Below are positions 1,870-21,056 of a stretch of DNA of 64,000 nucleotides, in pieces. The stretch is from Ostreococcus lucimarinus (Eukaryota): the NCBI GenBank assembly GCA_000092065.1, contig CP000593.1. One strand, 5' to 3'. Every line of letters starts with the position of its first letter. Position 1 is the stretch's first letter. Position numbers and translations under genes: made by a program. The notes below the pieces were generated by a model. The model saw nothing but the letters and a program-made list of their open reading frames with translations, was not told the DNA's origin and did not search any database.

Positions 1870-2046
1870 CGTCGTCGACGCGTCCTCGAACGGACGAGGC
1901 GACGCGCGACGAGGCGCGCGAACGCGGACGCGCGCGGGGTTCGCGAGACGAAAACGATCGCGAGGGCTTCGATCTCGCGCGCGCGCTCGAGACGTCGCGA
2001 CGACGCGTTGTGACGACGCGCCGGCTCTGCGCGTCATTGCGAGAAG

Positions 2047-3727
2047 ATGGCGTTCGCGCTCGGCGCGAGCGCGGAGGAATGGGCGATCGACGCGTGGATG
2101 CGGTTACCGTTGATCGCCTGGGCGAGTTCGTTCGTCGGGACGGTGCGTCGGGCGGTCGCGCGCGGCGCGCGCGCGGCGCGAACGCGATGGATGGTCGAGC
2201 GGGCGCGCGCGCGCGCGTTGAGAGCGACGCGAGACGCGTTCGGGCGCGCGAGACGGCGACGCGCGAGGCGCGGCGCGGTGACTGACGGGAGTTTCGAACG
2301 CGCGGTGGACGCAGCTCATGAATAAGCACGCGAAGACGCCGAAGATCACGGGATACTTGCTCGCCGGCGTGGCGTTTGGGCGACACGGTTTAGGCGCGTT
2401 GTCGGCGGCGGGATCTCGACGGTTATGGCTCGTCGATAACGGATGCCTGGCGTGCATCGGCGTCGCGGCTGGATCTGAGGTGGTGCTGAGTGAGGTGCGG
2501 AAGACGCTGCGGGTGACGATGGTGACCATCGCGAGCGTGGCGTGCTGCTGCTGGTGCGCGACGTTTGGCGCGTTCGACGCGATTTTCGCGCAGAGGGTGG
2601 AGTTTTTGCAAGGGCTGACGGAGCGACACGTCGCGGCGGTGGGATCTTTATTGGGGACGCTTTCGTTGGCGCGCTCGCCCGCGAGTGCGATGGCGGTGAT
2701 CAACGAGTGCGAGGCGAGCGGGCCGTATTGCGCGCACATTTTGAGCACGACGGTTTTGAAAGACGTTCTCGTCGTCGCGTTGTTCGCTATAAACGTCGAG
2801 CTCGTGGCGCTTTCGGGATTAGACTTCCACAATATCATATCAGATGCGGCGACGATGGCCTTGGGAGGTGAGATCGCGAGCAACACGACGCGCGATGTCG
2901 GCGCGAGCGCGGCGGCGAGAAGACTCTTGGTGAATTTGAAGCCCGCGACGCAATGGGAAACTTCGCATCCCATCACCAAGCTTTTGCAACCTATAGTGCG
3001 GGTGATCGGGGCCGCCATTGCGGGTATCATCGCAGGCGTCCTACTTGGACGCTTGCTCAAACCCACGTCCTTGGCGGCGCGTTGGAAAAACATTCGTGTC
3101 GGCTGCATCGTGTGCGGCGCCGCCGCCATCTTTGTGTCTAGCGAACATCTCGGATTGGAGCCTTTATTGGTGTGCGTCGCCGCCGGTCTCACCGCGGCAA
3201 ATCGCAAGCATACGAACGGCGCGCACGAGCGCGAGGAGTTACACGCCGCGATCGCGATCGTGACGCCAGCGGTAAATTTGCTCTTCTTCACCCTCGCCGG
3301 CGCGAGCCTGCGCCTGGAAAACGTGTACAACTCCATCGTCATCGCGGTCGGTCTCGTCATCGTTCGTCTTTTGGGGCTGTATTGTGCCACGGCAATATCT
3401 GCGCGCATACTCAAAGCACCGGCGGTGAGCGACATCACGGGCGAACGGCGCAAAAACATTGAATGGATGGGGCACGTCACCCAAGCCGGCGTCGCGCTCG
3501 GTTTGTCGCGCACCGTCGCCGCGAGATTTCCATACTGGGGCCCCGCGTTTTCGACGCTGGCCGTGTCCGTGATCGTCATCAACTTATTCATCGGTCCCGT
3601 GTTATTTCGCGCATCCATAGAACTCATGAACGAGTCGCACTCGACGCTCAACGCGGCGTTGGAGCGCATCGTCGCGACGCCCAAGCGCGCGGTCGAGGCG
3701 CCCGCGACCGGCTCTCCTTCCCTTTAG
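2047..3727 (+). CDS. Cation/H+ antiporter, CPA2 (Kef/KEA-like Na_H exchanger family), 2 exons: 2047..2142 and 2315..3727
   Basis: Polytopic membrane protein with the CPA signature KITGYLLAGVAFGRHGLG near the N-terminus. The ORF beginning at ATG 2318 lacks the first TM helix. Exon 1 (MAFALGASAEEWAIDAWMRLPLIAWASSFVGT) supplies it and joins in phase 0 through a GTGCGT...ACTGAC...CAG intron. Confidence 0.7.
2143..2314 (+). other. Predicted intron (172 nt) of the CPA2 antiporter
   Basis: Donor ACG|GTGCGT at 2143, ACTGAC at 2281-2286, acceptor CAG ending at 2314. Phase 0 on both sides. There is an in-frame stop if it is not spliced. Confidence 0.55.
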
Positions 3728-3838
3728 CACAGCGCGCCGCGCGCCTAGTCCATTTGTATCGAAAGTCTCCTTTCTTAGTGTATTACATTCGCATGATTCA
3801 TTCGCCGCTAAACTAAAATTAAACAGGCTCTCGCGACC

Positions 3839-4341
3839 CTATTCGAGCTCGAGTCGCTTCTCCACATCCTTCCAGAGTTTACCCTTATTCGAGCTGCGCG
3901 CGAACCGTCGACGAAAACCTCGGTCAATCCCCATTCGCATCATCGCGCGCGCGCGCGCGCGCCTCGCGCGCGTCGCGCGCGTCGCGTCGTTTCGCGTCGC
4001 GTCGTTTCGCGTCGCGTCGCTTCGACCCCTCACCTCTCCCACGCGCGATCGAATCCGTAGTTCAACGCCTTCTCCCCCGCGAGCGCCCCCGCGACGATCA
4101 CCCCGACGTACACCGCCGAATTCTGCGCGCGCGCGTTCGCGCCTCGTCAGTCCCCCCGTCCTCGCGCGCGTCGCGCGCCGCCCTCCCCCCTCGTCGTCGA
4201 GATCGCGCGCTCGATCGTCGCCGCCTCGCGCGCGCCGTCGCCCGCGCGCCGCCCGCGCGCCGTCGCCCGCGCGCGCCGTCGCGCCCGCGCGCGCTCGCGC
4301 GCACGCACCGACATGAACGTCTTGTAAAACGCGCCGAACAT
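3839..4341 (-). CDS. QCR9: Cytochrome bc1 complex subunit 9 (QCR9/UQCR10), 3 exons: 4341..4309, 4122..4034, 3893..3839
   Basis: The spliced product is 58 aa: MFGAFYKTFMSNSAVYVGVIVAGALAGEKALNYGFDRAWESSNKGKLWKDVEKRLELE. The FYKTF..N.AV.VG..AG helix and the NKGKLWKDV tail match yeast Qcr9 and human UQCR10. Splice phases are consistent. This gene is not represented in the ORF track. Confidence 0.8.
3894..4033 (-). other. QCR9 intron 2 (140 nt)
   Basis: Donor AG|GTGAGG, ATTGAC branch-like motif, acceptor CAG. Phase 2/1 recreates an AGC (Ser) codon. Confidence 0.7.
4123..4308 (-). other. QCR9 intron 1 (186 nt)
   Basis: Donor TCG|GTGCGT; ACTGAC (plus-strand gtcagt at 4146-4151) 24 nt before the acceptor CAG; phase 0. 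Confidence 0.75.
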
Positions 4342-4351
4342 CGTCGCGCGT

Positions 4352-4592
4352 CCGTCCGTCGATCGCGTCGCGATCTGCGCGCGCGCGCGTCGTCGCCGCC
4401 GATCGCTCGAACCTCGAGCCATCGATCGTTCGCGCAGATTTAACCGCATCGCGAGGTTCGATCGACGACGCCGTCCGTCGATCGCGCGTCGCGATCCGCG
4501 CGCGCGCGCGATCGTCGCCGCCGATCGCTCGAACCTCGAGCCATCGATCGACTCCACCGATTTCACCGCATCGCGAGGTTCGATCGACGACG
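4352..4592. repeat. Tandem duplication, 2 x ~120 bp, CGATCG-rich, in the QCR9/ANTH divergent promoter
   Basis: Copy A is 4352-4470 and copy B is 4471-4592. They share long identical blocks (ccgccgatcgctcgaacctcgagccatcgatcg, caccgcatcgcgaggttcgatcgacgacg) with a few indels. Confidence 0.85.
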
Positions 4593-4662
4593 CGCGCGCG
4601 GGTTCGCCGGCGCGCGGGCGCGCCCGCGCCGGCACAGACGCGCGCGGTCGCGTCGGCGCGCG

Positions 4663-6813
4663 ATGCCGCTCCGGTTGCAGAAAAAGGCGTCGCGCGTCGT
4701 GCGCGCGGTGGCGGAGGAGGTCCAGGTCGCGCGCGGCGTCGGCACGCGCACCGATAAGCGCGGGAACGCGAAGACGGCGCTGTGGGAGCGCGGCAAGGTG
4801 CGATCGAGCGGCGGATTGGCGCGTGTCTCGATCGGCGCGACGAGGATCGCGCGCGAACGCGCGACGCGAGGCGACGCGCGACGCGCGCGCGCGGAGACGC
4901 GAAGGGAAACCCGCGCGGGAGATTCGGGGAGACGCGCGAGAGACTGACGGGACGCGGACGCGACGCAGGCGAAACTCGCGGCGACGGCGGTGGAGAAGGA
5001 GTTCGCCGAGACGCAGTTGGCGTTTAGCAAGGCGACGAATTTCGATGACGTGCCGCCGAAGGAGAAGCACGTGCTGGCGCTGGTGCGCACGTGCGGAGGC
5101 GCGGGCGGAGGGAGCTCGAGGGATCGGGCGTTCGTGTTGGAGACGTTGGCGAGACAGGTGCGGAAGTGCGCGCCGTGGAGGACGATGCTGAAGACGCACG
5201 TGTTGCTGCACAGGTTGATGCGGGAGTGCGAGGGAGGGGGGTTTAAGGATGACTTCTTCAGGTTTTTGGAATTTTTATCTCGGAAAACGTACGGGCCGAA
5301 AGAACAGACGCTGTTTAACATTCGCTACTGGAAGGACGAGACCAACAAGGACGCGTACGAGTTGTCGGGGTGGACGCGCGCGTACGCGGCGTACCTCGAA
5401 GAGCTGTGCGCTTTGAATGAGTTCATCCCGAGCCTCGTAGGAAACGTGAGTGGCGCGGTGACGACGACGACAAACGGCGAGGCGCGAGCGGTGGTGGCGA
5501 ATCCGTTGAAAGATTGTGATTTCGCGACGTTGATCAAGGTTTTGCCCTTGGTGCAGACGCTCGTGCGACGCATCACGGATTGCGCGCCAACATCTACGAC
5601 GCTGCAGAAAAATGCCGTCTCGCGATACGCCGTCGGACTCGTCGCAAAGGATAGTTTCTTGGTGTATCGCGTCATGAACGAGGGCATCATAAACCTGGTG
5701 GACAAGTACTTTGAAACGAGCAAAGTCGAGGCGGAGAAAGGGTTGGTGATTTTCAAAAAGTACTTGACGCAAATCGAAGACTTGCAACGATTTTACGACA
5801 CGTGCGAAGCGTGCGCGGCGGTGGAAAACGCAGTCGTCAAGCTTGAAGCACCCCCTGCGACGTTTTTGAAGAGCATGGAAGAGTACTTCGAATCGGCGCC
5901 TCGCGAAGGCTTGCCTCTTCGCGAGCGGCGGTTGGGCGCGACATCTTCGACGACGGCGAACAATGCACGAGCGAATGCGGTGGGGTCGACAATGTTGGCG
6001 ATCGACGTCCCCGCCAACAACGCGGACTTTATCAGTACCACTGCTGCGCTACCGCCGGTGGAGCCGTTGAATGCGCTCGATGCGCTCAGTCAGCTTGATT
6101 TAGGTACGCCGAGCCCAACGAGCAAAGACGATGTTTTTAGCTCAAACGCGCTGCCCGCGCCGACGCAACCGCCGGCGTTAGCGCCGGTCGCGCCCGCAGC
6201 TTCGAGCAGTACAAGCGCACTTGATTCTTTCTCCGAGTCAATCGCTCCGGCGGTGCCGACGGAACCCTCTGCGGTGGCGTACAACCCATTCGGAGCGAAC
6301 CCATACGGCGGCGCCCCGCAAATGGTGCCGGCGGCTCCGCAAACGGCGCCGGCGCCCCAAGCAAAATCGCCGAGAAGCACGAACCCATTCGGAAATAACC
6401 CGTTCGGTACACCACAGCCTCAAAGTTTGGACAAGAGCGCACTCAATGACTTATACGCGCAAGCTCCAGCGTCACCCAGGAGTGGCCATGGCATGAGTTC
6501 CATGGCACCGCCGCAACACATCAATCCGAGCTTTATGCAAGCGCCGCCCAACAGCGCCTTGCAGCGGCAGCAAGTTGGCGCACCTCAGCTAGCGCTACCG
6601 ATGGCTGGTGTGCAGTATCCACAACAATATCCGCAGATGGCGTTCCCCCAGCACCATCAGCAGATGGGATACCCGCAGCAGCATCCGCAGATGGGATATC
6701 CCCAGCGCCCGGCGGCTGAACCACCGTTGCACCCGGCGTTCGCCAACCCTCACCAAGGCGGCAGTCCAAGTTCTAGCGCTCCATCACCGCAGAACTCCGG
6801 CAGTTTGATTTGA
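4663..6813 (+). CDS. ANTH-domain clathrin assembly protein (AP180/PICALM-like); likely 2 exons: 4663..4797 and 4969..6813
   Basis: ANTH core is present: SKATNFDDVPPKEKHVLALV...WRTMLKTHVLLHRLMREC...LSGWTRAYAAYLEE. The C-terminal half is P/Q/A-rich with NPF motifs (NPFGANPYG, NPFGNNPFG). The ORF-track start at 4990 is GTG, and the first in-frame ATG would delete part of the ANTH domain. An upstream exon starting at ATG 4663 joins in phase 0. Confidence 0.75.
4798..4968 (+). other. Predicted intron (171 nt) of the ANTH gene
   Basis: Donor AAG|GTGCGA at 4798, ACTGAC at 4943-4948, acceptor CAG ending at 4968. There is an in-frame TGA inside. An alternative earlier donor (GAG|GTCCAG) cannot be excluded. 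Confidence 0.45.
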
Positions 6814-6898
6814 TCTAGAGCGACACGACGAGAATAAGCACGCAAATGAACAACCAAACGCGCGCGCTTCCCTTTGTCGCCACAGCGCGCCTCGCGCC

Positions 6899-8368
6899 AT
6901 GTCGCTCGCCGTCCATCTCTCATCCACCCGCACGCGCGGCGCGACGCCGTTCGCGCGCGTCAATCGCGCAAAACAGTCGCGCGTCGCATACCAGCGCGTC
7001 TCCACGCGCGCATCGCGACGCGTCGCGACGCTAGTTCGCGTTGTCCCGCTCAAAAAGTGCTGCGCTTTTTCGCAGTCATCCTCGCGCCGTTCCGCTACGC
7101 GCGCGCGCGCGACGGCCGCCGCGCCGCGCGACGCCGACGATGCGAATAAAATCATCCTCGCCCTCGGCGTGGCCATGCTGCTCGCGAGCGCGGACCGAAC
7201 GATTTTCGCCGCCGCGGCGCTGAGCCTGAAGGCGGAGCTGGGCATGTCCATGAAGGATTTGGCGCTCGCGCAGAGCGCGTTTCTGTGGGGATACGGCGTC
7301 ACGCAGCTCGCGGCGGGCGCGTCGAGCGATCGATTCGGTGGCGCGAAGGTGTTGCTCGGTGGGCTGTGCGTGTGGTCGATCGCGGTGGCGGTGACGCCGC
7401 TGAGCTCGATGACGACGGCGCCGGTGCTCGCAGTCGTGGCGGCGCGATTTTTGTTCGGCGCGGCGAGCGGATGCGCGCTACCGGCGTCCGCAGCGGCGGT
7501 TGCGGCGCACGTGCCGGCGGAGCGACGGTCGGGCGCGTTGTCAACGATATTTGCGCTGTTTAACATTGGTTCGGCGTTCGGGCTCGCGGCGGCTGGAAGT
7601 TTGATCACGCAGTTTGGGTGGCGAGCGATTTTCTACGGCTTCGGCGCGTTTGGCGCGGCGTGGGCCGTCGCCGCCTACGCCGCAATGCCGCAGAGCGTGA
7701 AAACTTTCGTCCCTAGGGTACCGAAGGTGAGCGAGTTGAAGGATGAAAACGGCGAGCAAATGACCGAGTTGTCGTCCGAAGTTGCGACGCAGCTCGTTGC
7801 GCTGTTGTGGTGTCACGTCGTCGTGAACTGGGGGTTCATGATTTTACAGTCATGGCTGCCGGTGTATCTCGCGAACGACTTGGGAATGTCCATCGCGAGC
7901 TCTGGGATCCTCGGCGCTTTACCGTGGGTATTCACCGCGTTCATGTCATTTAGCTCGGGACAGGTGGCGGATAAGTTGATTAGTCGAGGGATGGAGCGAT
8001 GGAAAGTGCGTCGATTGGCGATGAACGTCGCCACCATCGGTCCCGCCCTGGGATTATTCGCGTTGAAGTACACCACCACCGCGAGCGTCGCGTTGGCGTG
8101 CATCGTCGCCACGCTCGGTCTTCAAGCCGTCGCGGTTGCGGGGTATCACAGTTACCTTCAGGACGTCGCTCCGTCTCGCGCGGGCGCTATTCTCGGTTTC
8201 ACAAACACGGTCGGCGTCGTCGGTTCAATCGTCGCCAACATGGTGACTGGCGCGAGCGTCGAGGCGACGGGGTCGTTTCAAGCGACATTTTTGTACACCG
8301 CGGCGATGTACGCGAGCTCTTGCTTTGTTTGGAATGCATTCTTGAAGGGTGAGCAGTTGTTTCCGTAA
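6899..8368 (+). CDS. Major facilitator superfamily transporter, PHT4/ANTR (SLC17-like anion transporter) type, transit-peptide-like N-terminus
   Basis: ATG at 6899 and about 12 predicted TM helices. The motif region ADRTIFAAAALSLKAELGMSMKDLALAQSAFLWGYGVTQLAAGASSDRFGGAKVLLGGLCVWS is typical of SLC17/PHT4-type MFS proteins. Confidence 0.7.
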   Translation: MSLAVHLSSTRTRGATPFARVNRAKQSRVAYQRVSTRASRRVATLVRVVPLKKCCAFSQSSSRRSATRARATAAAPRDADDANKIILALGVAMLLASADRTIFAAAALSLKAELGMSMKDLALAQSAFLWGYGVTQLAAGASSDRFGGAKVLLGGLCVWSIAVAVTPLSSMTTAPVLAVVAARFLFGAASGCALPASAAAVAAHVPAERRSGALSTIFALFNIGSAFGLAAAGSLITQFGWRAIFYGFGAFGAAWAVAAYAAMPQSVKTFVPRVPKVSELKDENGEQMTELSSEVATQLVALLWCHVVVNWGFMILQSWLPVYLANDLGMSIASSGILGALPWVFTAFMSFSSGQVADKLISRGMERWKVRRLAMNVATIGPALGLFALKYTTTASVALACIVATLGLQAVAVAGYHSYLQDVAPSRAGAILGFTNTVGVVGSIVANMVTGASVEATGSFQATFLYTAAMYASSCFVWNAFLKGEQLFP

Positions 8369-8370
8369 AA

Positions 8371-8801
8371 AATAAGATGTAAATATAAAAAATGAATCCG
8401 TCACTCTTAGACTGCGATCGCGTTCCGATGCGTGTCGGAAATGGTAGACTGCCAGCGGAGCCATCAAAGGCTTCCTAATCGTCAACCGCACGATCCGCCC
8501 CAAAGTAAACTTTAATAAGATGTAAATATGAAAAATGAATCCGTCACTCTTAGACTGCGATCGCGTTCCGATGCGTGTCGGAAATGGTAGACTGCCAGCG
8601 GAGCCATCAAAGGCTTCCTAATCGTCAACCGCACGATCCGCCCCAAAGTAAACTTTAATAAGATGTAAATATGAAAAATGAATCCGTCACTCTTAGACTG
8701 CGATCGCGTTCCGATGCGTGTCGGAAATGGTAGACTGCCAGCGGAGCCATCAAAGGCTTCCTAATCGTCAACCGCACGATCCGCCCCAAAGTAAACTTTG
8801 A
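8371..8801. repeat. Near-perfect tandem repeat, 3 x 143 bp
   Basis: Unit starts (taagatgtaaatat...) are at 8373, 8516 and 8659. I see 1 mismatch between copies 1 and 2 and 1 at the end of copy 3. The repeat fills the gap between two convergent genes, from 3 bp after the MFS stop codon to about 40 bp before the 3' end of the next gene. Confidence 0.95.
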
Positions 8802-8841
8802 AAGTTATGCACTGATGCGTGTGCGATGATTATCTCGCGAA

Positions 8842-10359
8842 TTACACGAGAATCATGGTGGCGATGGCGACGAAGGTCACCGTCACAAGATTCGCGCCGA
8901 TGCGCGCCGCGGGAGACGCGCCGAGAAGCGCGGCGACGGCGACACGTTGCGCGGAAAGCTGCGCGAGGCACAGACCGTTGACTCGGGCGTTGTCCCACAG
9001 CGTACACTCATTCGCCGTCGTTTTCACGACGACGTCGTTGCTGTTGATGTCTCGGAAGAATCGAGGGCATCCTTCTTGAAGAGTCGTGACGCCCGCGACG
9101 CCATTCAGCCACGACAGACGCACGAGATCTTGCACGACCACAGCCGGATGCACGTAAGAGTCCTCGAACCACGTCAACGACTCGGTCGGCCAAAAGGTTG
9201 AGTGTGAGTACAAGGGATCACCATCGCTGACGTGCTTGTCCAATCGCAAGATCATACCAGTCGACGGTGAAAGACTGGGAAGACCCGGCGCTTCGTTGAA
9301 GGCAAGATTCGTGATGACGGCGGTCTTCGTCGCATCCGTGCTCGGCGTAGTGAACCACGATTCATCGATGACGACGGCAACATTTGCCATATCGGTGAGA
9401 AACGCCGCTTTGCTTGGATACTTGTAATAGCCCGCGCTCGACGTCGCCGCGCTCGGAATGTGAATGCTCAAGCCCGCGGCGGTACAAATGTCTCGCTTGT
9501 AGTCGTCCCAAGTGATTTCGTACGCAGCAGTAACCCAGGCGCACTTGTAACCGGTTGGAATGCCACCTCGAGCTTGCGCCGCGGCGACTTGCCCCGCCAT
9601 GTAATTCCAACGTTCGTACTGGTCGGCGTAGTAACCGCTCGCTTGGGTCTCCTTGTTGAAAAACAAAGAGATAAATTTGATGAACGAAAGTCGCTCGAGC
9701 ATGCCGAGATTCGTGTGCGACGGCGTGAACACCACATCCTTGTCCGAGTTCGAATACCCGGTGTCCCACTCATCCGTGATGACCATCTCCACATTATTGG
9801 TCGAAATACTGTTGTGCCACAGCGTGTAATTGTACTTCGACGCACCCAAATAAATCACGTGACTCGCCGCGAGCGTTCCGTCCTCCTCCGCCTTTTGCAC
9901 GCACGGCGCGTGCACGTACGCCGGATCGATCAACTTCAACTTATCTCGCAATCCGAGCTGTTCGAGGTATCCGACCGCGACGCTCATTCCCGTGGCCACG
10001 CGTTTCACCGGCACCGAGAAGAATCGCGCACCCGCGGGGAACGCCGACCCGTCGACGTCCTGCGTCGGCTGCGTCGTCCCGCACTGGTACAGCACGTACG
10101 TCAACGCCTCGACGCCCGGCAGCGCCTTCGTGCGCACCACCTTGAACGTCTCGGCGTAGGTGACATTGAACCCTTCGCCACCGTCCACGAACGCGCTCGC
10201 GCTTCCCGAGGTGAGATTCCCCGGGGACAAGCGCGCGGCGGCGGGAAAGAAATCTGTCCCGCTCGGCGTCGACGACGTCGCGCAGGCTTGGTTATCCACC
10301 GCCGAGGCGCGCGCGGTGCCGACGAGGGCGAGGAGGGTGAGCAGACGTACGCACGACAT
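8842..10359 (-). CDS. Secreted or cell-surface protein with a bacterial periplasmic-binding-protein-like region (iron-chelate/siderophore-binding type suspected), hydrophobic C-terminal anchor
   Basis: ATG at 10359 gives a classical signal peptide (MSCVRLLTLLALVGTARA|SA). The ORF-track start at 10419 is TTG. The segment FSVPVKRVATGMSVAVGYLEQLGLRDKLKLIDPAYV resembles the N-lobe of class III (FhuD/BtuF-like) binding proteins. The C-terminus ANLVTVTFVAIATMILV is TM- or GPI-signal-like. The CDS itself is solid; the function is tentative. Confidence 0.5.
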   Translation of the reverse strand: MSCVRLLTLLALVGTARASAVDNQACATSSTPSGTDFFPAAARLSPGNLTSGSASAFVDGGEGFNVTYAETFKVVRTKALPGVEALTYVLYQCGTTQPTQDVDGSAFPAGARFFSVPVKRVATGMSVAVGYLEQLGLRDKLKLIDPAYVHAPCVQKAEEDGTLAASHVIYLGASKYNYTLWHNSISTNNVEMVITDEWDTGYSNSDKDVVFTPSHTNLGMLERLSFIKFISLFFNKETQASGYYADQYERWNYMAGQVAAAQARGGIPTGYKCAWVTAAYEITWDDYKRDICTAAGLSIHIPSAATSSAGYYKYPSKAAFLTDMANVAVVIDESWFTTPSTDATKTAVITNLAFNEAPGLPSLSPSTGMILRLDKHVSDGDPLYSHSTFWPTESLTWFEDSYVHPAVVVQDLVRLSWLNGVAGVTTLQEGCPRFFRDINSNDVVVKTTANECTLWDNARVNGLCLAQLSAQRVAVAALLGASPAARIGANLVTVTFVAIATMILV

Positions 10360-10600
10360 CGCGCGAGCGGGCGTCGGCGAGCCGTGGTGTGGCGGAACGT
10401 TGCGATGGGCGGCAGACAAGTTGACGTCTCGTTCGCGAAAAAAACCCTAAAGGTTGCTAGAATAAACGTTCACAAAGCGGTAAATCTTGGAGATAACGCG
10501 CGGCGAGCTAGTGAAGTGCCGCGCGAGATGATGCAAGATGGGATAAGATGAGAGAACGTCGCGCGAGGCGACATCGCGAGGGCGAAGAGCTCATCGAAAC

Positions 10601-12049
10601 TCACGCCGACTTTGATTTGACGCGCTGAGATCCGTGCACGTAATAGTGCTTCCCGACGTCGTTCAAGTTGCCGAACGTCGCCTTCCAGGCCCCATAATAC
10701 GTCAAGACCTTGTAGTTTAAGTTCCACTTCTTCGCAAACGGGACGAATCGGCGGGAGACTTCGGGTTGGCGGAACTGAGGCATATCCGGGAACAGGTGAT
10801 GGATGACTTGGCAGTTCAAGTAGCCCATCAACCAGTTGACGACGCTGTTGTTCGGATTGATGTCGATCGTGTGATCGACGGCGTATCGCACCCACGAGAG
10901 GTGTTTATCGCTCGGCACGACATCCAAGTGCGTGTGAGACGTGGAAAAGTGCGCGAACAAGTAACATCCGCTCGCCCACATCGTCGCCGCGAACAAGCCG
11001 TACGAGGCGATCCAGGAGTAGCCGGTGACGGCTTTGATAACCGCCGTGCGAATGACGTGCGCGGAAAACATCCAAGCCGCTTCTTCGAAGCTTTTGCGTC
11101 GCAGCGCGTTACGCGGGTGCAAGACGAACATCCAGAAGAACAAAACCATACCGGACGTCACGGGCACGAAGGTCCACGCTTGAAGGCGCAACCACAACTT
11201 ACTGAATCCCCGCGGGCGATTTTCTTCAACCGCGGAGTTGAAGAACGCCACCGTGGGAGTGGTGTCGAGATCCATATCGTGTCGCACCTTTTGGGGCGTC
11301 GCGTGATGCTTGTTGTGCATGTTGTTCCACATGTCGCCACTCGACGCCAAGCCGAACCCCGCGGCGAAGGCTTGGATTCGCTTGTCCCACCAAATGTTTC
11401 CAGTCAACGAATTGTGCCCACCCTCGTGCTGCACCCAACCGCATCGCGCGCCGAAGAAACACGAGTACACGATCACGGAAGCGACGTGCCAACGCGCGTG
11501 CATCAACGCCGTGCCGAGCGCGAACATCGCCGCGAGCTCGGCGAATCGATACGCCACGTGCGCCGGCGAGGGCTTAAAAAATCCCTCACGCTCCAATTCC
11601 TTGCGCCACTGCGCGAAATCCTTCAGCATCGCCTCATCTTCGATCGGTTCCCGCGTCGCCGCGTCCACTGGCTTATGCGGCAACGCCGCCAACGCCTTGC
11701 GCGCCTTTTTCGACCGATAATGAAACTCTTTAAAAGCCTCCGTCGCGTCCGCTCCCGTGTTCGACAGCATGTAATAAATAACCGATCCTCCGGGATGCTT
11801 AAAATCCGTCACATCGTATTCCACGCCTTCGATCGTCACGTACCGCCGTTCGAACGTCTTCGCGATCGCGTGCGGCTCCAACTCTTTCGTCCACGCCGTG
11901 ACGCTCGCGTTTCGAGTCTTCTTCCCCGCGTCTTCGCTTCCCATCCCGACCGTCACCGTCGGCGTTCCGCCTTCGCTCAGCGACGACGACGAGCTCGTGC
12001 GTTCGTTCGCCATCGTTCGCGATGTGCCTTCGGTCGTTTCGACGCACAT
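10601..12049 (-). CDS. Front-end Delta6 fatty-acid desaturase with N-terminal cytochrome b5 domain (acyl-CoA-type, Ostreococcus OtD6 family)
   Basis: ATG at 12049. The heme motif HPGG is present (DVTDFKHPGGSVIYY). The three His boxes are QHEGGH, HNKHH and QVIHH, with the front-end Q substitution. By memory it is collinear and highly similar to the characterised O. tauri Delta6-desaturase (MCVET...YYVHG...). Confidence 0.92.
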   Translation of the reverse strand: MCVETTEGTSRTMANERTSSSSSLSEGGTPTVTVGMGSEDAGKKTRNASVTAWTKELEPHAIAKTFERRYVTIEGVEYDVTDFKHPGGSVIYYMLSNTGADATEAFKEFHYRSKKARKALAALPHKPVDAATREPIEDEAMLKDFAQWRKELEREGFFKPSPAHVAYRFAELAAMFALGTALMHARWHVASVIVYSCFFGARCGWVQHEGGHNSLTGNIWWDKRIQAFAAGFGLASSGDMWNNMHNKHHATPQKVRHDMDLDTTPTVAFFNSAVEENRPRGFSKLWLRLQAWTFVPVTSGMVLFFWMFVLHPRNALRRKSFEEAAWMFSAHVIRTAVIKAVTGYSWIASYGLFAATMWASGCYLFAHFSTSHTHLDVVPSDKHLSWVRYAVDHTIDINPNNSVVNWLMGYLNCQVIHHLFPDMPQFRQPEVSRRFVPFAKKWNLNYKVLTYYGAWKATFGNLNDVGKHYYVHGSQRVKSKSA

Positions 12050-12436
12050 CTCTCGCGTTTTAATCAGGATTTAAAGCGAACGATCAGTTTTGTGGAATTC
12101 GTCGCTTTGAACGCGTCTGACGTCGTCGCCGCGCGTCTTCGAGGCGTGCGGCGCGCGCGAAACTTTGATCGCGCGTGTTTGTTTCGCGGTGCGCGCGGTC
12201 ACGGACGCCGCCGCGCGCGCGCGACGACGCGATGTGACGATAAAGCGAGCCGCCAGTGTCATCATCTTGTGCTCCCTGCGTCGCGCGCGAGCGCCGAGCG
12301 CGCGCGTTTTAATGTCGCCTCGCGCGACCGCGCGCGCGGTCGACGCGGTGGTCGTCGCGATCGAATCATCGTCTCTCGCGTTATTCGCACATGCTAATTC
12401 GTTTCAATTCGCTACGTTGAACGTCGCCGCGCGGCG

Positions 12437-14035
12437 TCACTGGAAGTACGCGGTGAGGGAGCGGCGCGCGCGCGTCGGCGGCGCCGGGGAATCGATCGAT
12501 GTCATCGGTTTCGCTTTTGCTCGCGGGATCGGCTCGTTCTCGGTATTTTCTGCGTCGGGGCGCTCTTCGTCGATGTCTTCGACGTCGGGGTCGGCGTCGG
12601 CGTCGGCGTCGAGGACGACCGGGGACGGCGGAAGACCCGCGGCGAGGGCGAGGGCGTTCCCGGGGGTGTTGGGACGTCTCGCCGTTTGAGGCGCGAATGC
12701 GCTGAGAGGGGTGAGCACGGCGGATGATGTCGCCGCGATGGCCTCGTAACGCTCTCGCCAGTACCGAGCGTCGCTCTGGAAGAGCGCGCGCGCGCGGCGT
12801 TCGTGCTCGAGCGCCTCGATGACGTCGATGGAGGCGGCGGGTTTCGAGGGCGACGCCGAGACGGCGGCGCTGGGTGAGGACGCCACTACCGGCGATATCG
12901 GTCGCAGCTGATGCTGTTGCTGCTTTTGGGCGTCCAGTTCGCGCTGGAGCTCGTCGCGTTCGGCGGCGATGGCGTCCAAGTTTTCCTCGAGCGTCTTCAC
13001 TCGTTCCTCCGCCACGTTGACCTCTAACTCCGCCGTCGCCGCGCGTGCATCCGCCAAACGGAGCGCGGCGGCGTTTTCCGTGAAAATTTGACTCGCCTTG
13101 TCCGCGCGAGCAACGATGAGGTCGACGTTCTTTCGAGATTCCACGAGCTGGGCCTCGGCGTCGCTCAGCGCGACGCTCAGCGCGTTTTCTTTCTCGCGGC
13201 TTCGTCGCAGCTCATCCGCGCGCTCTTCGAGCGCGGCTTCGGACTCCCGCAACGTCGACGCCGTCGCCCGAATTTCTTCGTCTCGTTCGGAAAGTAAACT
13301 TCGTAACTCCTCAATCTCTCGCGCGAGCTCCGGCGACGCCCTCTCGCCTTCCTCCGCGGCTCTAAGCCGCGATTTCAAAACGTCTCGCTCCGCCGCCGCC
13401 GTCTCCGCCTTTTCGTTCGCCTCGTCCGCTTCCGCGCGCGACCTCTCGCGCGCATCCTCCAGCTCGCGCTTCGCCGCGTCAAACGTCTCTCTCGTCGCCT
13501 TCGTCTTCGCCTCCGTCTCGACCGCGTTCGCCTTCGTCTCCGCCTCGCGCGCCGCCCTCTCCCTCTCGAGCGCGTCCTCTAATTCCTTCGCCCTCTCGTT
13601 CGCCCTCTCCAGCGCCTCCGCGTCCGTCGTCGACGTCGTCGTCCTCTTCGACGCCTCCGCCCGCGCCAGCGTCCTTCGCAGCGTCGCCCGCAGTTCGTCC
13701 CGCAGCGCGTCCCTTTCCGCCCTCGTCTTCGCCTCTCCCGCCGCCGCTCGATCCCTCGCTTCCTCCATCTCCCTCGCCGTCGCTCGCGCCTCCTCCAGCG
13801 CGCGCTCGCGCGCCTCCAGCGCGCTCGTCAGTCGCCGCACGTCCTCGTCCACGCTCGCGTACGCCTTGCTCAGCCGTCCCGCCTGCGCCGCCGCCGCGCG
13901 CGCGCGCTCCAGCCTCGCCTCGCTCGTCTCCAGCGCCGCGCGCATCCCCTCCAGCTCCCCGCGCAGGCCGTCCACCGTGTCGTCGAACGCGCGCGCGTCG
14001 CCGGGCGACGACGCGCCGCTCGCCGGCGCATCCAT
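12437..14035 (-). CDS. Long coiled-coil protein, function unknown
   Basis: First ATG at 14035 (MDAPASG...); the ORF-track start is GTG. About 330 aa are E/A/R/L-rich heptad-like sequence (ALEERADELRRSREKENALSVALSDAEAQL...), followed by an acidic, proline-containing tail. Confidence 0.65.
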   Translation of the reverse strand: MDAPASGASSPGDARAFDDTVDGLRGELEGMRAALETSEARLERARAAAAQAGRLSKAYASVDEDVRRLTSALEARERALEEARATAREMEEARDRAAAGEAKTRAERDALRDELRATLRRTLARAEASKRTTTSTTDAEALERANERAKELEDALERERAAREAETKANAVETEAKTKATRETFDAAKRELEDARERSRAEADEANEKAETAAAERDVLKSRLRAAEEGERASPELAREIEELRSLLSERDEEIRATASTLRESEAALEERADELRRSREKENALSVALSDAEAQLVESRKNVDLIVARADKASQIFTENAAALRLADARAATAELEVNVAEERVKTLEENLDAIAAERDELQRELDAQKQQQHQLRPISPVVASSPSAAVSASPSKPAASIDVIEALEHERRARALFQSDARYWRERYEAIAATSSAVLTPLSAFAPQTARRPNTPGNALALAAGLPPSPVVLDADADADPDVEDIDEERPDAENTENEPIPRAKAKPMTSIDSPAPPTRARRSLTAYFQ

Positions 14036-14281
14036 CGCGCCGCGGTGTGCCGTCGATCGATCGCTCGGCGCGCGCGCGCGTCGACCGCGCGAGGTTCGCG
14101 GCGCGCGCGCGATCGACGACGCGAGGGTCGCGCGATCGCGCGTCGATCGATCGCGCGCGCGGCCGCGCGACCGCGTCGATCGATCGCGCGCGCGCCGCGT
14201 CGATCGATGCGTCGTCGATCGACGCGCGCGCGCGATCGACGACGCGGCGGTCGCGCGATGGCGCGCGCGATCGATCGCGCG

Positions 14282-14301
14282 CGGTGGTGACGTCACCACC
14301 G
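14282..14301. promoter_or_regulatory. 20-bp perfect palindrome cggtggtgacgtcaccaccg with a TGACGTCA (CRE/bZIP-type, ACGT) core
   Basis: Exact reverse-complement symmetry, checked base by base. It lies 73 bp upstream of the HCF136 ATG, in a 338-bp divergent intergenic region. Confidence 0.5.
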
Positions 14302-20768: not shown

Positions 20769-21056
20769 ACGATCGATCGATCGATCGAGGTTTAAAACGG
20801 CGCGCGGTCGAAACGCGCGCGAGGGTCGACGCGCGCGAGAACGATCGATCGATCGCGCGGTCGATCGGTCGATCGATCGAGGTTTAAAACGGCGCGCGGT
20901 CGACGCGCGCGCGAGGGTCGACGCGCGCGAGAACGATCGATCGATCGCGCGGTCGATCGGTCGATCGATCGAGGTTTAAAACGGCGCGCGGTCGAACCGC
21001 GCGCGAGGGTCGACGCGCGCGAGAACGATCGATCGCGCGGTCGATCGGTCGCGCGG
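20766..21056. repeat. Tandem repeat, ~3 x 92 bp, CGATCG-rich with one TTTAAA island per unit, in the TLK/FKBP divergent promoter
   Basis: The ggtttaaaacggcgcgcggtcga anchors are at 20789, 20881 and 20973, giving an exact 92-bp period. Units are nearly identical and the third is partly degenerate. A (GCC)8 run follows at 21062-21086. Confidence 0.9.

Follow-up and report, generated by a model that had tools for sequence, protein, structure and literature searches.

The transferrin-receptor 3′ untranslated region (UTR) carries five iron-responsive elements (IREs), and to our knowledge the only eukaryotic riboswitches that are known bind thiamine pyrophosphate (TPP). In Ostreococcus, TPP riboswitches lie in the 5′ UTRs of SSSP and SSSF (McRose et al. 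2014, PMC4260697). For vitamin B12, diatoms and Chlamydomonas strongly induce cobalamin acquisition protein 1 (CBA1) when deprived of the vitamin, with the need for CBA1 in uptake and its induction shown only for Phaeodactylum and Chlamydomonas, and the B12-responsive control described in the algal papers cited here is promoter-based only (e.g. PMC10828217); the Mamiellophyceae lack METE and are B12-dependent (PMC11439496). Here we analyse a 64,000-nt (64-kb) stretch of the Ostreococcus lucimarinus CCE9901 genome (contig CP000593.1, assembly GCA_000092065.1), hereafter the window, in which a tandem array of three 143-bp units fills the space between the 3′ ends of two convergent genes, an MFS transporter gene on the plus strand and a homologue of CBA1 on the minus strand. 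An earlier note on this DNA had correctly described the repeat, taken it as a recent, locus-specific feature and raised the possibility that it varies in copy number, and missed that three quarters of the unit is a covarying RNA of the minus strand. Comparison of sequences leads us to read the array as a recent triplication of a CBA1 3′-UTR regulatory RNA together with the MFS poly(A) signal, with a probability of roughly 60%.

Tandem Repeats Finder (TRF) reports a period of 143, 3.0 copies, 99% matches, no indels and a score of 851, i.e., the contiguous head-to-tail copies of a tandem repeat or minisatellite. Only unit position 17 varies, being A in copy 1 (at 8387) and G in the identical copies 2 and 3, which makes the previous count of about two mismatches in three copies a fair one. 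A 41-mer of the unit occurs exactly three times in the window and in none of 100 shuffles. The ends of the open reading frames (ORFs) bear out the placement in a 3′-3′ gap, as the array starts 2 nt past the MFS stop (TAA, 8366-8368) and finishes 42 nt short of the convergent stop (8842-8844). Each unit consists of a 108-nt structured element and a 35-nt AU-rich spacer, and the TGTAA motif previously seen in every unit is indeed there, within the spacer. A CRISPR array, with short repeats and unique spacers in a prokaryote, had been dismissed, rightly, as these copies are contiguous; the comparison is moot in any case because this is a eukaryotic picoalgal chromosome.

Orthologous loci, fetched through MFS homologues of 69-80% identity, reveal which part of the unit is conserved. 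A single copy of the element lies between MFS and CBA1 in contigs L012, L018, L019, L021, L024/L031 and L027, with partial copies in L023 and L032, giving seven full versions when that of the window is counted. Flanking coding sequences of the five diverged lineages are 64-77% identical to the window (93-97% in the close relative L012), and for the core of the element the five have 76-86% identity, with 15-17 of its 18-20 unpaired positions unchanged; these values indicate that the element is under purifying selection across Ostreococcus lineages. On the minus strand the unit contains four conserved blocks, CUUUGGGGCGGA, UUGACGAUUAGAAGC, GCUUCGCUGGCAGUC and GCAGUCUAAGA, while the spacer elsewhere has diverged freely. 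The L012 element differs from that of the window only in the P2 loop and by one change of G-C to G·U.

These blocks are predicted to fold as a three-way junction made up of helices P0, P1, a variable P2 and P3, an internal loop and the hairpin P4, in which the asymmetric internal loop, GAUUA/GCUGGCA, is invariant. Four helices covary, with compensatory changes across lineages. P1 is found as GAUCGUG/CGCGAUC, GACCGCGC/GCGCGGUC, GACUGCG/CGCAGUC, ACC(C)GCG/CGCGGU, GACCUAG/CUCGGUC and UCGA(A)GC/GCUCGA; two positions of P3 are U·U, U-A or A-U; P4 is GAAGC/GCUUC or GAAGUC/GACUUC, and GGA(A)GCC/GGCUCC in the window; and one position of the outer P0 is AU, CG, UG, UA or GC. The side branch P2 ranges from ~18 to ~80 nt, and forms one or more hairpins in each lineage. 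Across the alignment 92% of cells pair, and sliding the partners by 1-3 columns lowers this to 37-44%. Both partners have changed in 17 of the 30 pairs, and values as high as those observed arise in 0 of 500 shuffles. The covariation alignment had included two weak false rows, and recounting with the nine true distinct rows leads to the same conclusion. A covariance model (R1), built on five lineages with a hand-set structure, recovers the lineages held out of it (L021, 63 bits; L024/L031, 44-48 bits; the L032 fragment, 37 bits) and nothing else in 150 kb of loci, or in the whole window searched with filters off, where the next best score is 15 bits, from GC-rich noise. Single-sequence folding gives z-scores of -1.2 to -1.7 for the unit and -2.3 for the trimmed element; because these are modest, thermodynamics alone would have been insufficient to flag the element, and it was the comparative data that did so.

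In each copy of the array, the invariant minus-strand UUAGA of the internal loop (8476-8480 in copy 1) is complementary over 5 nt to UCUAA in the 3′ strand of P0 (8405-8409). This alternative helix could compete with P0 as a possible switch; it falls outside the reach of a covariation test because both segments are invariant.

The element is very probably read in the sense of CBA1, from the 3′ UTR of that gene or just beyond it. Pairing on the minus strand extends to 91.9% of cells, 33 of them G·U, with two G·U pairs invariant, and at two covarying positions U·G appears as the intermediate between C-G and U-A or A-U; on the plus strand pairing falls to 80.7%, and P0 cannot form because the invariant G·U pairs become A·C. 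RNAalifold finds 23 pairs (-14.4 kcal/mol) for the minus-strand reading and 10 (-4.8) for the plus-strand one, and in each of the seven lineages the minus strand has the lower minimum free energy. The element starts ~9 to ~52 nt past the CBA1 stop and lies ~30-95 nt from the MFS stop, and is the nearer to CBA1 in six of seven lineages, the window being the other, with gaps of 47 nt (CBA1) and 32 nt (MFS). What had looked like a plus-strand G·U pair in P4 is actually, on the minus strand, a bulged A together with a compensatory change of AU to GC.

The convergent gene itself had been labelled a surface protein, and a fold search, a published table of CBA1 homologues and BLASTP replace this label with that of a homologue of the B12-uptake protein CBA1. 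Read from the ATG at 10359, window 8845-10359 (minus strand) is identical to XP_001421072.1, which NCBI lists only as ‘predicted protein’, and Pfam and PDB sequence searches with this protein give no match. An AlphaFold2 model computed with 23 homologues has a mean confidence (pLDDT) of 80.6, and its top Foldseek matches in the PDB are the heme-binding PhuT and ShuT, the siderophore-binding FhuD, CeuE, FepB and YiuA, and the B12-binding BtuF (1n2z). The model therefore has the BtuF-like fold of a cluster-A periplasmic binding protein, and a protein-family profile search, which retrieves nothing beyond the Mamiellales except one PF01497 protein, supports this fold through that match. CBA1 is BtuF-like, with the hallmark residues FFNxE, WFE and an aspartate 12 residues on (Sayer et al. 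2023, PMC10828217); their counterparts in the window protein, FFNKE, WFE and an aspartate at that spacing, are all invariant or nearly so in the family (alignment A4). An O. lucimarinus entry among the hits of the CBA1 hidden Markov model (HMM) in Table S4 of PMC10828217, beginning MSCVRLLTLLALVG..., is identical to window 8845-10359 (minus strand), and BLASTP against the characterised Chlamydomonas CrCBA1 gives 25% identity over ~370 aa (E=1e-18) with FFNKE/FFNRE, VVIDES and WFE aligned. By HMM listing, by similarity to CrCBA1 with the hallmark residues, and by modelled fold, the convergent gene is thus a CBA1 homologue.

We propose that the element acts in cis as part of the CBA1 3′ UTR and would govern the fate of the mRNA, through 3′-end formation, stability or translation. 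In the three-copy allele, CBA1 transcription would meet copy 3 and then the AU-rich spacer, and MFS transcription would meet the first TGTAA. Each gene would encounter its own proximal signals first, leaving the extra units mostly as near-neutral spacer between convergent poly(A) sites; the inner units would matter only if CBA1 read-through transcripts carry two or three elements. Either a protein partner, by the logic of the IRE, or a direct ligand, by that of a riboswitch, would suit this architecture of a three-way junction, a variable branch and the invariant asymmetric loop. The coordinates of the elements and their surroundings are collected in the table.

Features of the array and of its flanking genes, in window positions
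Feature	Position	Strand	Basis and remarks
3 x 143-bp tandem array	8371-8799	.	TRF, repeat search, per-base comparison
Array units	8371-8513, 8514-8656, 8657-8799		Spacing 143, 143; repeat search
Structured element, copy 1	8401-8508	-	Nearest MFS; covariance model R1 (120 bits), fold, covariation
Structured element, copy 2	8544-8651	-	Identical to copy 1; covariance model R1, fold
Structured element, copy 3	8687-8794	-	First met by CBA1 transcription; starts 47 nt past CBA1 stop; covariance model R1
TGTAA	8378-8382, recurring 8521-8525, 8664-8668	+	First is 10 nt past MFS stop; likely near-upstream poly(A) signal of MFS
13-bp indel ACTTTGAAAGTTA	8795-8807	.	Absent from many natural haplotypes; adjoins helix P0; comparison of L001-L017
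MFS transporter gene (ACS family, SLC17-like; 489 aa)	6899-8368	+	ORF; Pfam MFS_1, 2.3e-50; JGI name
CBA1 homologue, XP_001421072.1, 505 aa	8842-10359	-	Protein match, AlphaFold2, Foldseek, Table S4, BLASTP
Cytochrome-b5 fusion front-end desaturase	10601-12049	-	Identical to the characterised delta-6 desaturase DAA34893.1 (O. lucimarinus CCE9901)

The same helices and loops might instead belong to an independent small noncoding RNA (ncRNA) gene, with its own promoter or processed from read-through, whose dosage the triplication raises. Strong covariation of the helices, the invariance of the loops and runs of T downstream on the minus strand in several lineages would suit such a gene, and tandem clusters of ncRNA genes are common in plants and algae. 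We consider this unlikely: a start ~9-52 nt from the CBA1 stop leaves little room for a promoter, the T-runs are inconsistent and missing from L027, and the element matches no Rfam family. Rfam 15 (4227 models, including those for TPP, cobalamin, SECIS, small nuclear, small nucleolar and signal recognition particle (SRP) RNAs and ribozymes), searched on both strands at E≤10, has no match in window 8200-9000 or at the element in L018, L019, L021, L024 and L027. ARAGORN predicts 0 transfer RNA (tRNA) or transfer-messenger RNA genes in the window, and together with inspection reveals no C/D, H/ACA, Sm or tRNA features; a literature search found no description of the element.

Individual classes considered one by one were rejected as follows. 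A TPP riboswitch would carry CUGAGA, which is absent from both strands of the element, and RF00059 has no match at E≤10 in six lineages. Neither RF00174, RF01482 nor RF01689, the cobalamin riboswitch models, matches what is a three-way junction in which inspection finds no B12 box. For SECIS, the minus strand lacks the AUGA/GA quartet, the plus strand has AUGA in some lineages and AUGG in the window, and the CBA1 ORF has no in-frame stop. By eye, the C/D-box-like GUGAUGA occurs on the plus strand of L019 only, and no likeness to a hammerhead, k-turn, IRE, U-type small nuclear RNA, SRP RNA or telomerase template runs across the lineages. The variable distance from the CBA1 stop, ~9 to ~52 nt, led us to reject a stimulator of stop-codon read-through or frameshifting.

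A second explanation, and the one favoured by the earlier note, is that the repeat matters as three equivalent TGTAA signals spaced 143 nt apart, which would provide alternative or fail-safe polyadenylation of MFS. Part of this stands, in that the three motifs are present and UGUAA is a green-algal poly(A) signal, published as the top near-upstream element (NUE) of O. lucimarinus poly(A) sites (30.4%, Z=30; PMC6413133). Of 35 long ORFs in the window, 9 are followed by TGTAA within 100 nt of the stop and none is preceded by it, and the TGTAA at +10 is a plausible MFS poly(A) signal, with predicted cleavage at ~8392-8417, at the edge of the element. This first signal should suffice for MFS, however, and single-copy alleles are common in nature. 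The TGTAA-bearing spacer is moreover the least conserved part of the unit: a plus-strand TGTAA follows the MFS stop in only three of seven lineages (L018, L027 and the window type); L012 has TGTAC instead, and the motif is missing from L021, L024 and, near the stop, L019, so the signal is not retained at the orthologous position. Because L012 lacks TGTAA while its element is nearly unchanged, selection appears to act on the element, the other 108 nt of the unit, and not on TGTAA. The triplication of the motif is then a by-product, and the supposed role for three equivalent signals looks quite improbable. The same short stretch of L012 (3270-3300) that has TGTAC for TGTAA also has TAG for TAA as the MFS stop.

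We next consider whether the element is instead read from the plus strand, with the MFS mRNA, as part of its 3′ UTR or of the region downstream. Helices P1, P3 and P4 are mostly Watson-Crick and could fold on either strand, and wherever both flanks are known MFS adjoins the element. The loss of P0 and the poorer pairing and folding energies of the plus strand argue against this, and the TGTAA at +10 should direct cleavage of the MFS mRNA upstream of the element or at its edge. Gene order provides a further argument. The order ANTH-domain protein, MFS (named by JGI ‘ACS family sodium-dependent inorganic phosphate cotransporter’), CBA1 and delta-6 desaturase is kept in all sampled Ostreococcus-like lineages (L018, L019, L021, L024, L027 and L031), and in a distant genus (L028-L030) the MFS orthologue (56% identity) has a different convergent gene and its locus lacks the structured element; this link of the element to CBA1 rather than to MFS comes from a single genus. 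We therefore regard an MFS-strand element as very doubtful, and continue to read it with CBA1.

Conservation could also act on the DNA rather than on an RNA, for instance on an origin, or on a terminator or insulator that binds protein between the convergent genes. The element does sit exactly between two such genes in a very compact genome, and several of its blocks are invariant rather than covarying. Compensatory double changes in four helices, with G·U intermediates on one strand only, and a hairpin branch of variable length are signatures of RNA pairing and not of a binding site on duplex DNA, and make this explanation highly improbable.

Natural haplotypes suggest how the structured RNA beside CBA1 came to be present three times. 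An exact look-up of the MFS protein gives ten marine metagenome contigs (L001-L010), whose MFS-CBA1 spacers were compared, and a 26-mer of the unit, lineage-specific and chosen before the conserved core was recognised, was found in seven contigs of the JGI metagenomes, all seven at the MFS-CBA1 locus. The earlier note had proposed comparing copy number across strains and had taken the near-identity to imply a very recent expansion or ongoing homogenisation; these metagenome haplotypes bear out a recent origin and a variable copy number, since alleles of one, two and three copies segregate among sequences 98-99.7% identical to the window. One-copy alleles are found in L001-L005, L008, L009, L014, L015 and L017; L001-L004, L008 and L009 have one unit and a right junction shorter by the 13 bp ACTTTGAAAGTTA, and L005 has one unit with the long junction of the window. 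L011 is a clean two-copy allele, L007 and L010 have at least two units interrupted by assembly gaps, and L012, a relative at 93% identity, has one copy. L006 has three copies at 99.39% identity to the window over 11.5 kb, and is an independent three-copy haplotype because 34 substitutions separate the two. The single-copy alleles are real and not collapsed arrays, because one 141-mer, in contigs assembled with k=141, spans the A of copy 1 and the right flank.

An assembly artefact, for which near-identical tandem copies are a classic source, or a single instance of a dispersed repeat or transposon family, is set aside by the presence of two and three copies in independent haplotypes and assemblies, by Logan contigs that break k-1 into the repeat (k presumably 31), by metagenome matches that all lie at the MFS-CBA1 locus, and by the absence of further copies from the window, viral contigs and prokaryotic genomes. 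In viral contigs neither the unit 26-mer nor a degenerate core motif was found, and 185,579 species of bacteria and archaea, represented by a single genome apiece, likewise lack that motif. The Logan contigs are L033 and L034, from two SRA runs that are independent read sets encoding the identical CBA1 protein, and both have their 3′ end at one and the same base, 30 nt inside the repeat; this equals k-1 if, as we take it, the Logan k is 31, and a break at that point is expected because the repeat causes a branch in the de Bruijn graph. The array is not an assembly artefact nor, in the data searched, a dispersed repeat. Breakpoints such as these may serve more generally as indirect evidence of a repeat in the underlying reads.

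Position 17 is A in single-copy alleles and in copy 1, and G in copy 2 of L011 and in copies 2 and 3 of the window and L006. The likely order of events would be a duplication, an A to G change in the distal copy, and duplication of that distal copy, with the third copy derived from the second because both carry the G variant. Duplication probably took place on a haplotype with the long right-hand junction, because the internal junction holds the long-type end (AAACTTT), and may have occurred by unequal recombination or template switching; the sequence has no microhomology at the unit boundaries. Two-copy alleles with a short junction would then imply recombination within the array or recurrent deletion. 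The array is thus a young, still-segregating tandem amplification, from one to two to three copies, of nearly the whole 3′-3′ spacer.

Loss of the 13 bp ACTTTGAAAGTTA leaves the RNA element intact. This indel segregates (L001-L004, L007-L011) with both one-copy and multi-copy arrays. The CBA1/desaturase side of the locus (8842-13500) is 3-5x more polymorphic than the MFS/ANTH side (1900-8368), with identities to the window of 98.1-98.8% and 99.3-99.7%, respectively (L001, L005, L007, L011 and L014), and the called CBA1 products among natural haplotypes range from 505 to 525 aa. Elsewhere in the window, tandem repeats lie at 4352-4593, 14051-14283 and 20770-21051, with two or three copies of 92-123-bp units at 84-95% identity; by ORF selection, they sit in GC-rich, CGATCG-rich gaps that appear to be divergent 5′-5′ intergenic regions. 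Tandem duplication of intergenic modules seems to be common in the O. lucimarinus genome.

Several points weigh against a triplicated regulatory RNA of the CBA1 3′ UTR and should be set beside the evidence for it. The presence of the element in the CBA1 mRNA is one that we infer, from sequence. Covariation is drawn from ~7 full lineages of one genus, in an alignment (A6) fitted to the model, and the inner P0, which bears the strand-deciding G·U pairs, is invariant; because of this, its pairing is deduced from continuity with the covarying outer P0. A minus-strand UGUAA after the element, which would serve CBA1, was not found in the window; L021 has one 13 nt past the element, and others have UUUAA or UUUAC. 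Locus-specificity holds for the data searched, with whole Ostreococcus genomes outside the copy search, and part of the copy-number calls come from short-read assemblies, with N gaps in L007 and L010. Finally, B12 control of METE in Chlamydomonas acts via the promoter (PMC10828217).

With these points in mind, B12-responsive control by the element is our leading guess as to what it does, a guess made by analogy: B12 status would be the most likely signal because CBA1 is a B12-starvation-induced uptake gene in other algae. A B12-status-sensing RNA in the CBA1 3′ UTR, in its boldest form a new, eukaryote-specific class of cobalamin-binding riboswitch that gates 3′-end formation or stability, is a long shot; if true, the one-, two- and three-copy alleles would tune the B12 response in natural Ostreococcus populations. 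The question bears on how vitamin B12 is sensed, and CBA1 turned on, in eukaryotic algae, here in a B12 auxotroph of global ecological weight that is genetically tractable. The element is a small (108-nt) and concrete candidate behind CBA1, supported by covariation, with invariant loops and without an Rfam match, and the natural alleles constitute a ready-made dosage series. Even if unrelated to B12, it would represent a new family of structured cis-acting RNA from a picoeukaryote, and it illustrates how an amplified functional module can lie behind a ‘simple’ tandem repeat.

Comparison with known systems places the array and the element in familiar categories. As a repeat, the array is of an ordinary kind, an intergenic tandem duplication with copy-number polymorphism: like other intergenic minisatellites it is head-to-tail, near-identical, locus-specific and noncoding, with one-, two- and three-copy alleles in one population. 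It departs from an anonymous minisatellite in that its unit is a complete module of structured RNA and poly(A) signal, and the other 92-123-bp repeats of the window differ from it in being GC-rich, more diverged and situated in 5′-5′ promoter gaps. The MFS TGTAA resembles the chlorophyte UGUAA signal, lying in an AU-rich stretch 10 nt past the stop in a species with UGUAA as its top NUE, and the repeated TGTAA of the array differs as a side effect of duplication, at a position unconserved among lineages.

The element is akin to the eukaryotic TPP riboswitch (RF00059) in its three-way junction, length-variable branch and invariant junction and loop bases, and in its place, presumably in a UTR, beside a vitamin-related transport gene of a vitamin-auxotrophic prasinophyte; it lacks CUGAGA and any match to RF00059, and lies 3′ of its gene rather than in a 5′ UTR. 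Bacterial cobalamin riboswitches (RF00174, RF01482 and RF01689) are likewise linked to B12 uptake, as is the element through a gene whose product is BtuF-like, but the element differs from them in lacking a covariance-model match or B12 box, in having a three-way rather than a four-way junction, in its 3′ rather than 5′ position and in its eukaryotic host. To the IREs of the transferrin receptor it is comparable as a structured element with invariant loop bases, of a probable 3′-UTR position, next to a micronutrient-uptake gene and in several tandem copies in one allele; it lacks the CAGUGN loop and any sequence or structural similarity to an IRE, is ancestrally single-copy, and transcription of more than one copy is only conjectural here. 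The element is thus an undescribed motif within a known category, that of conserved structured UTR elements.

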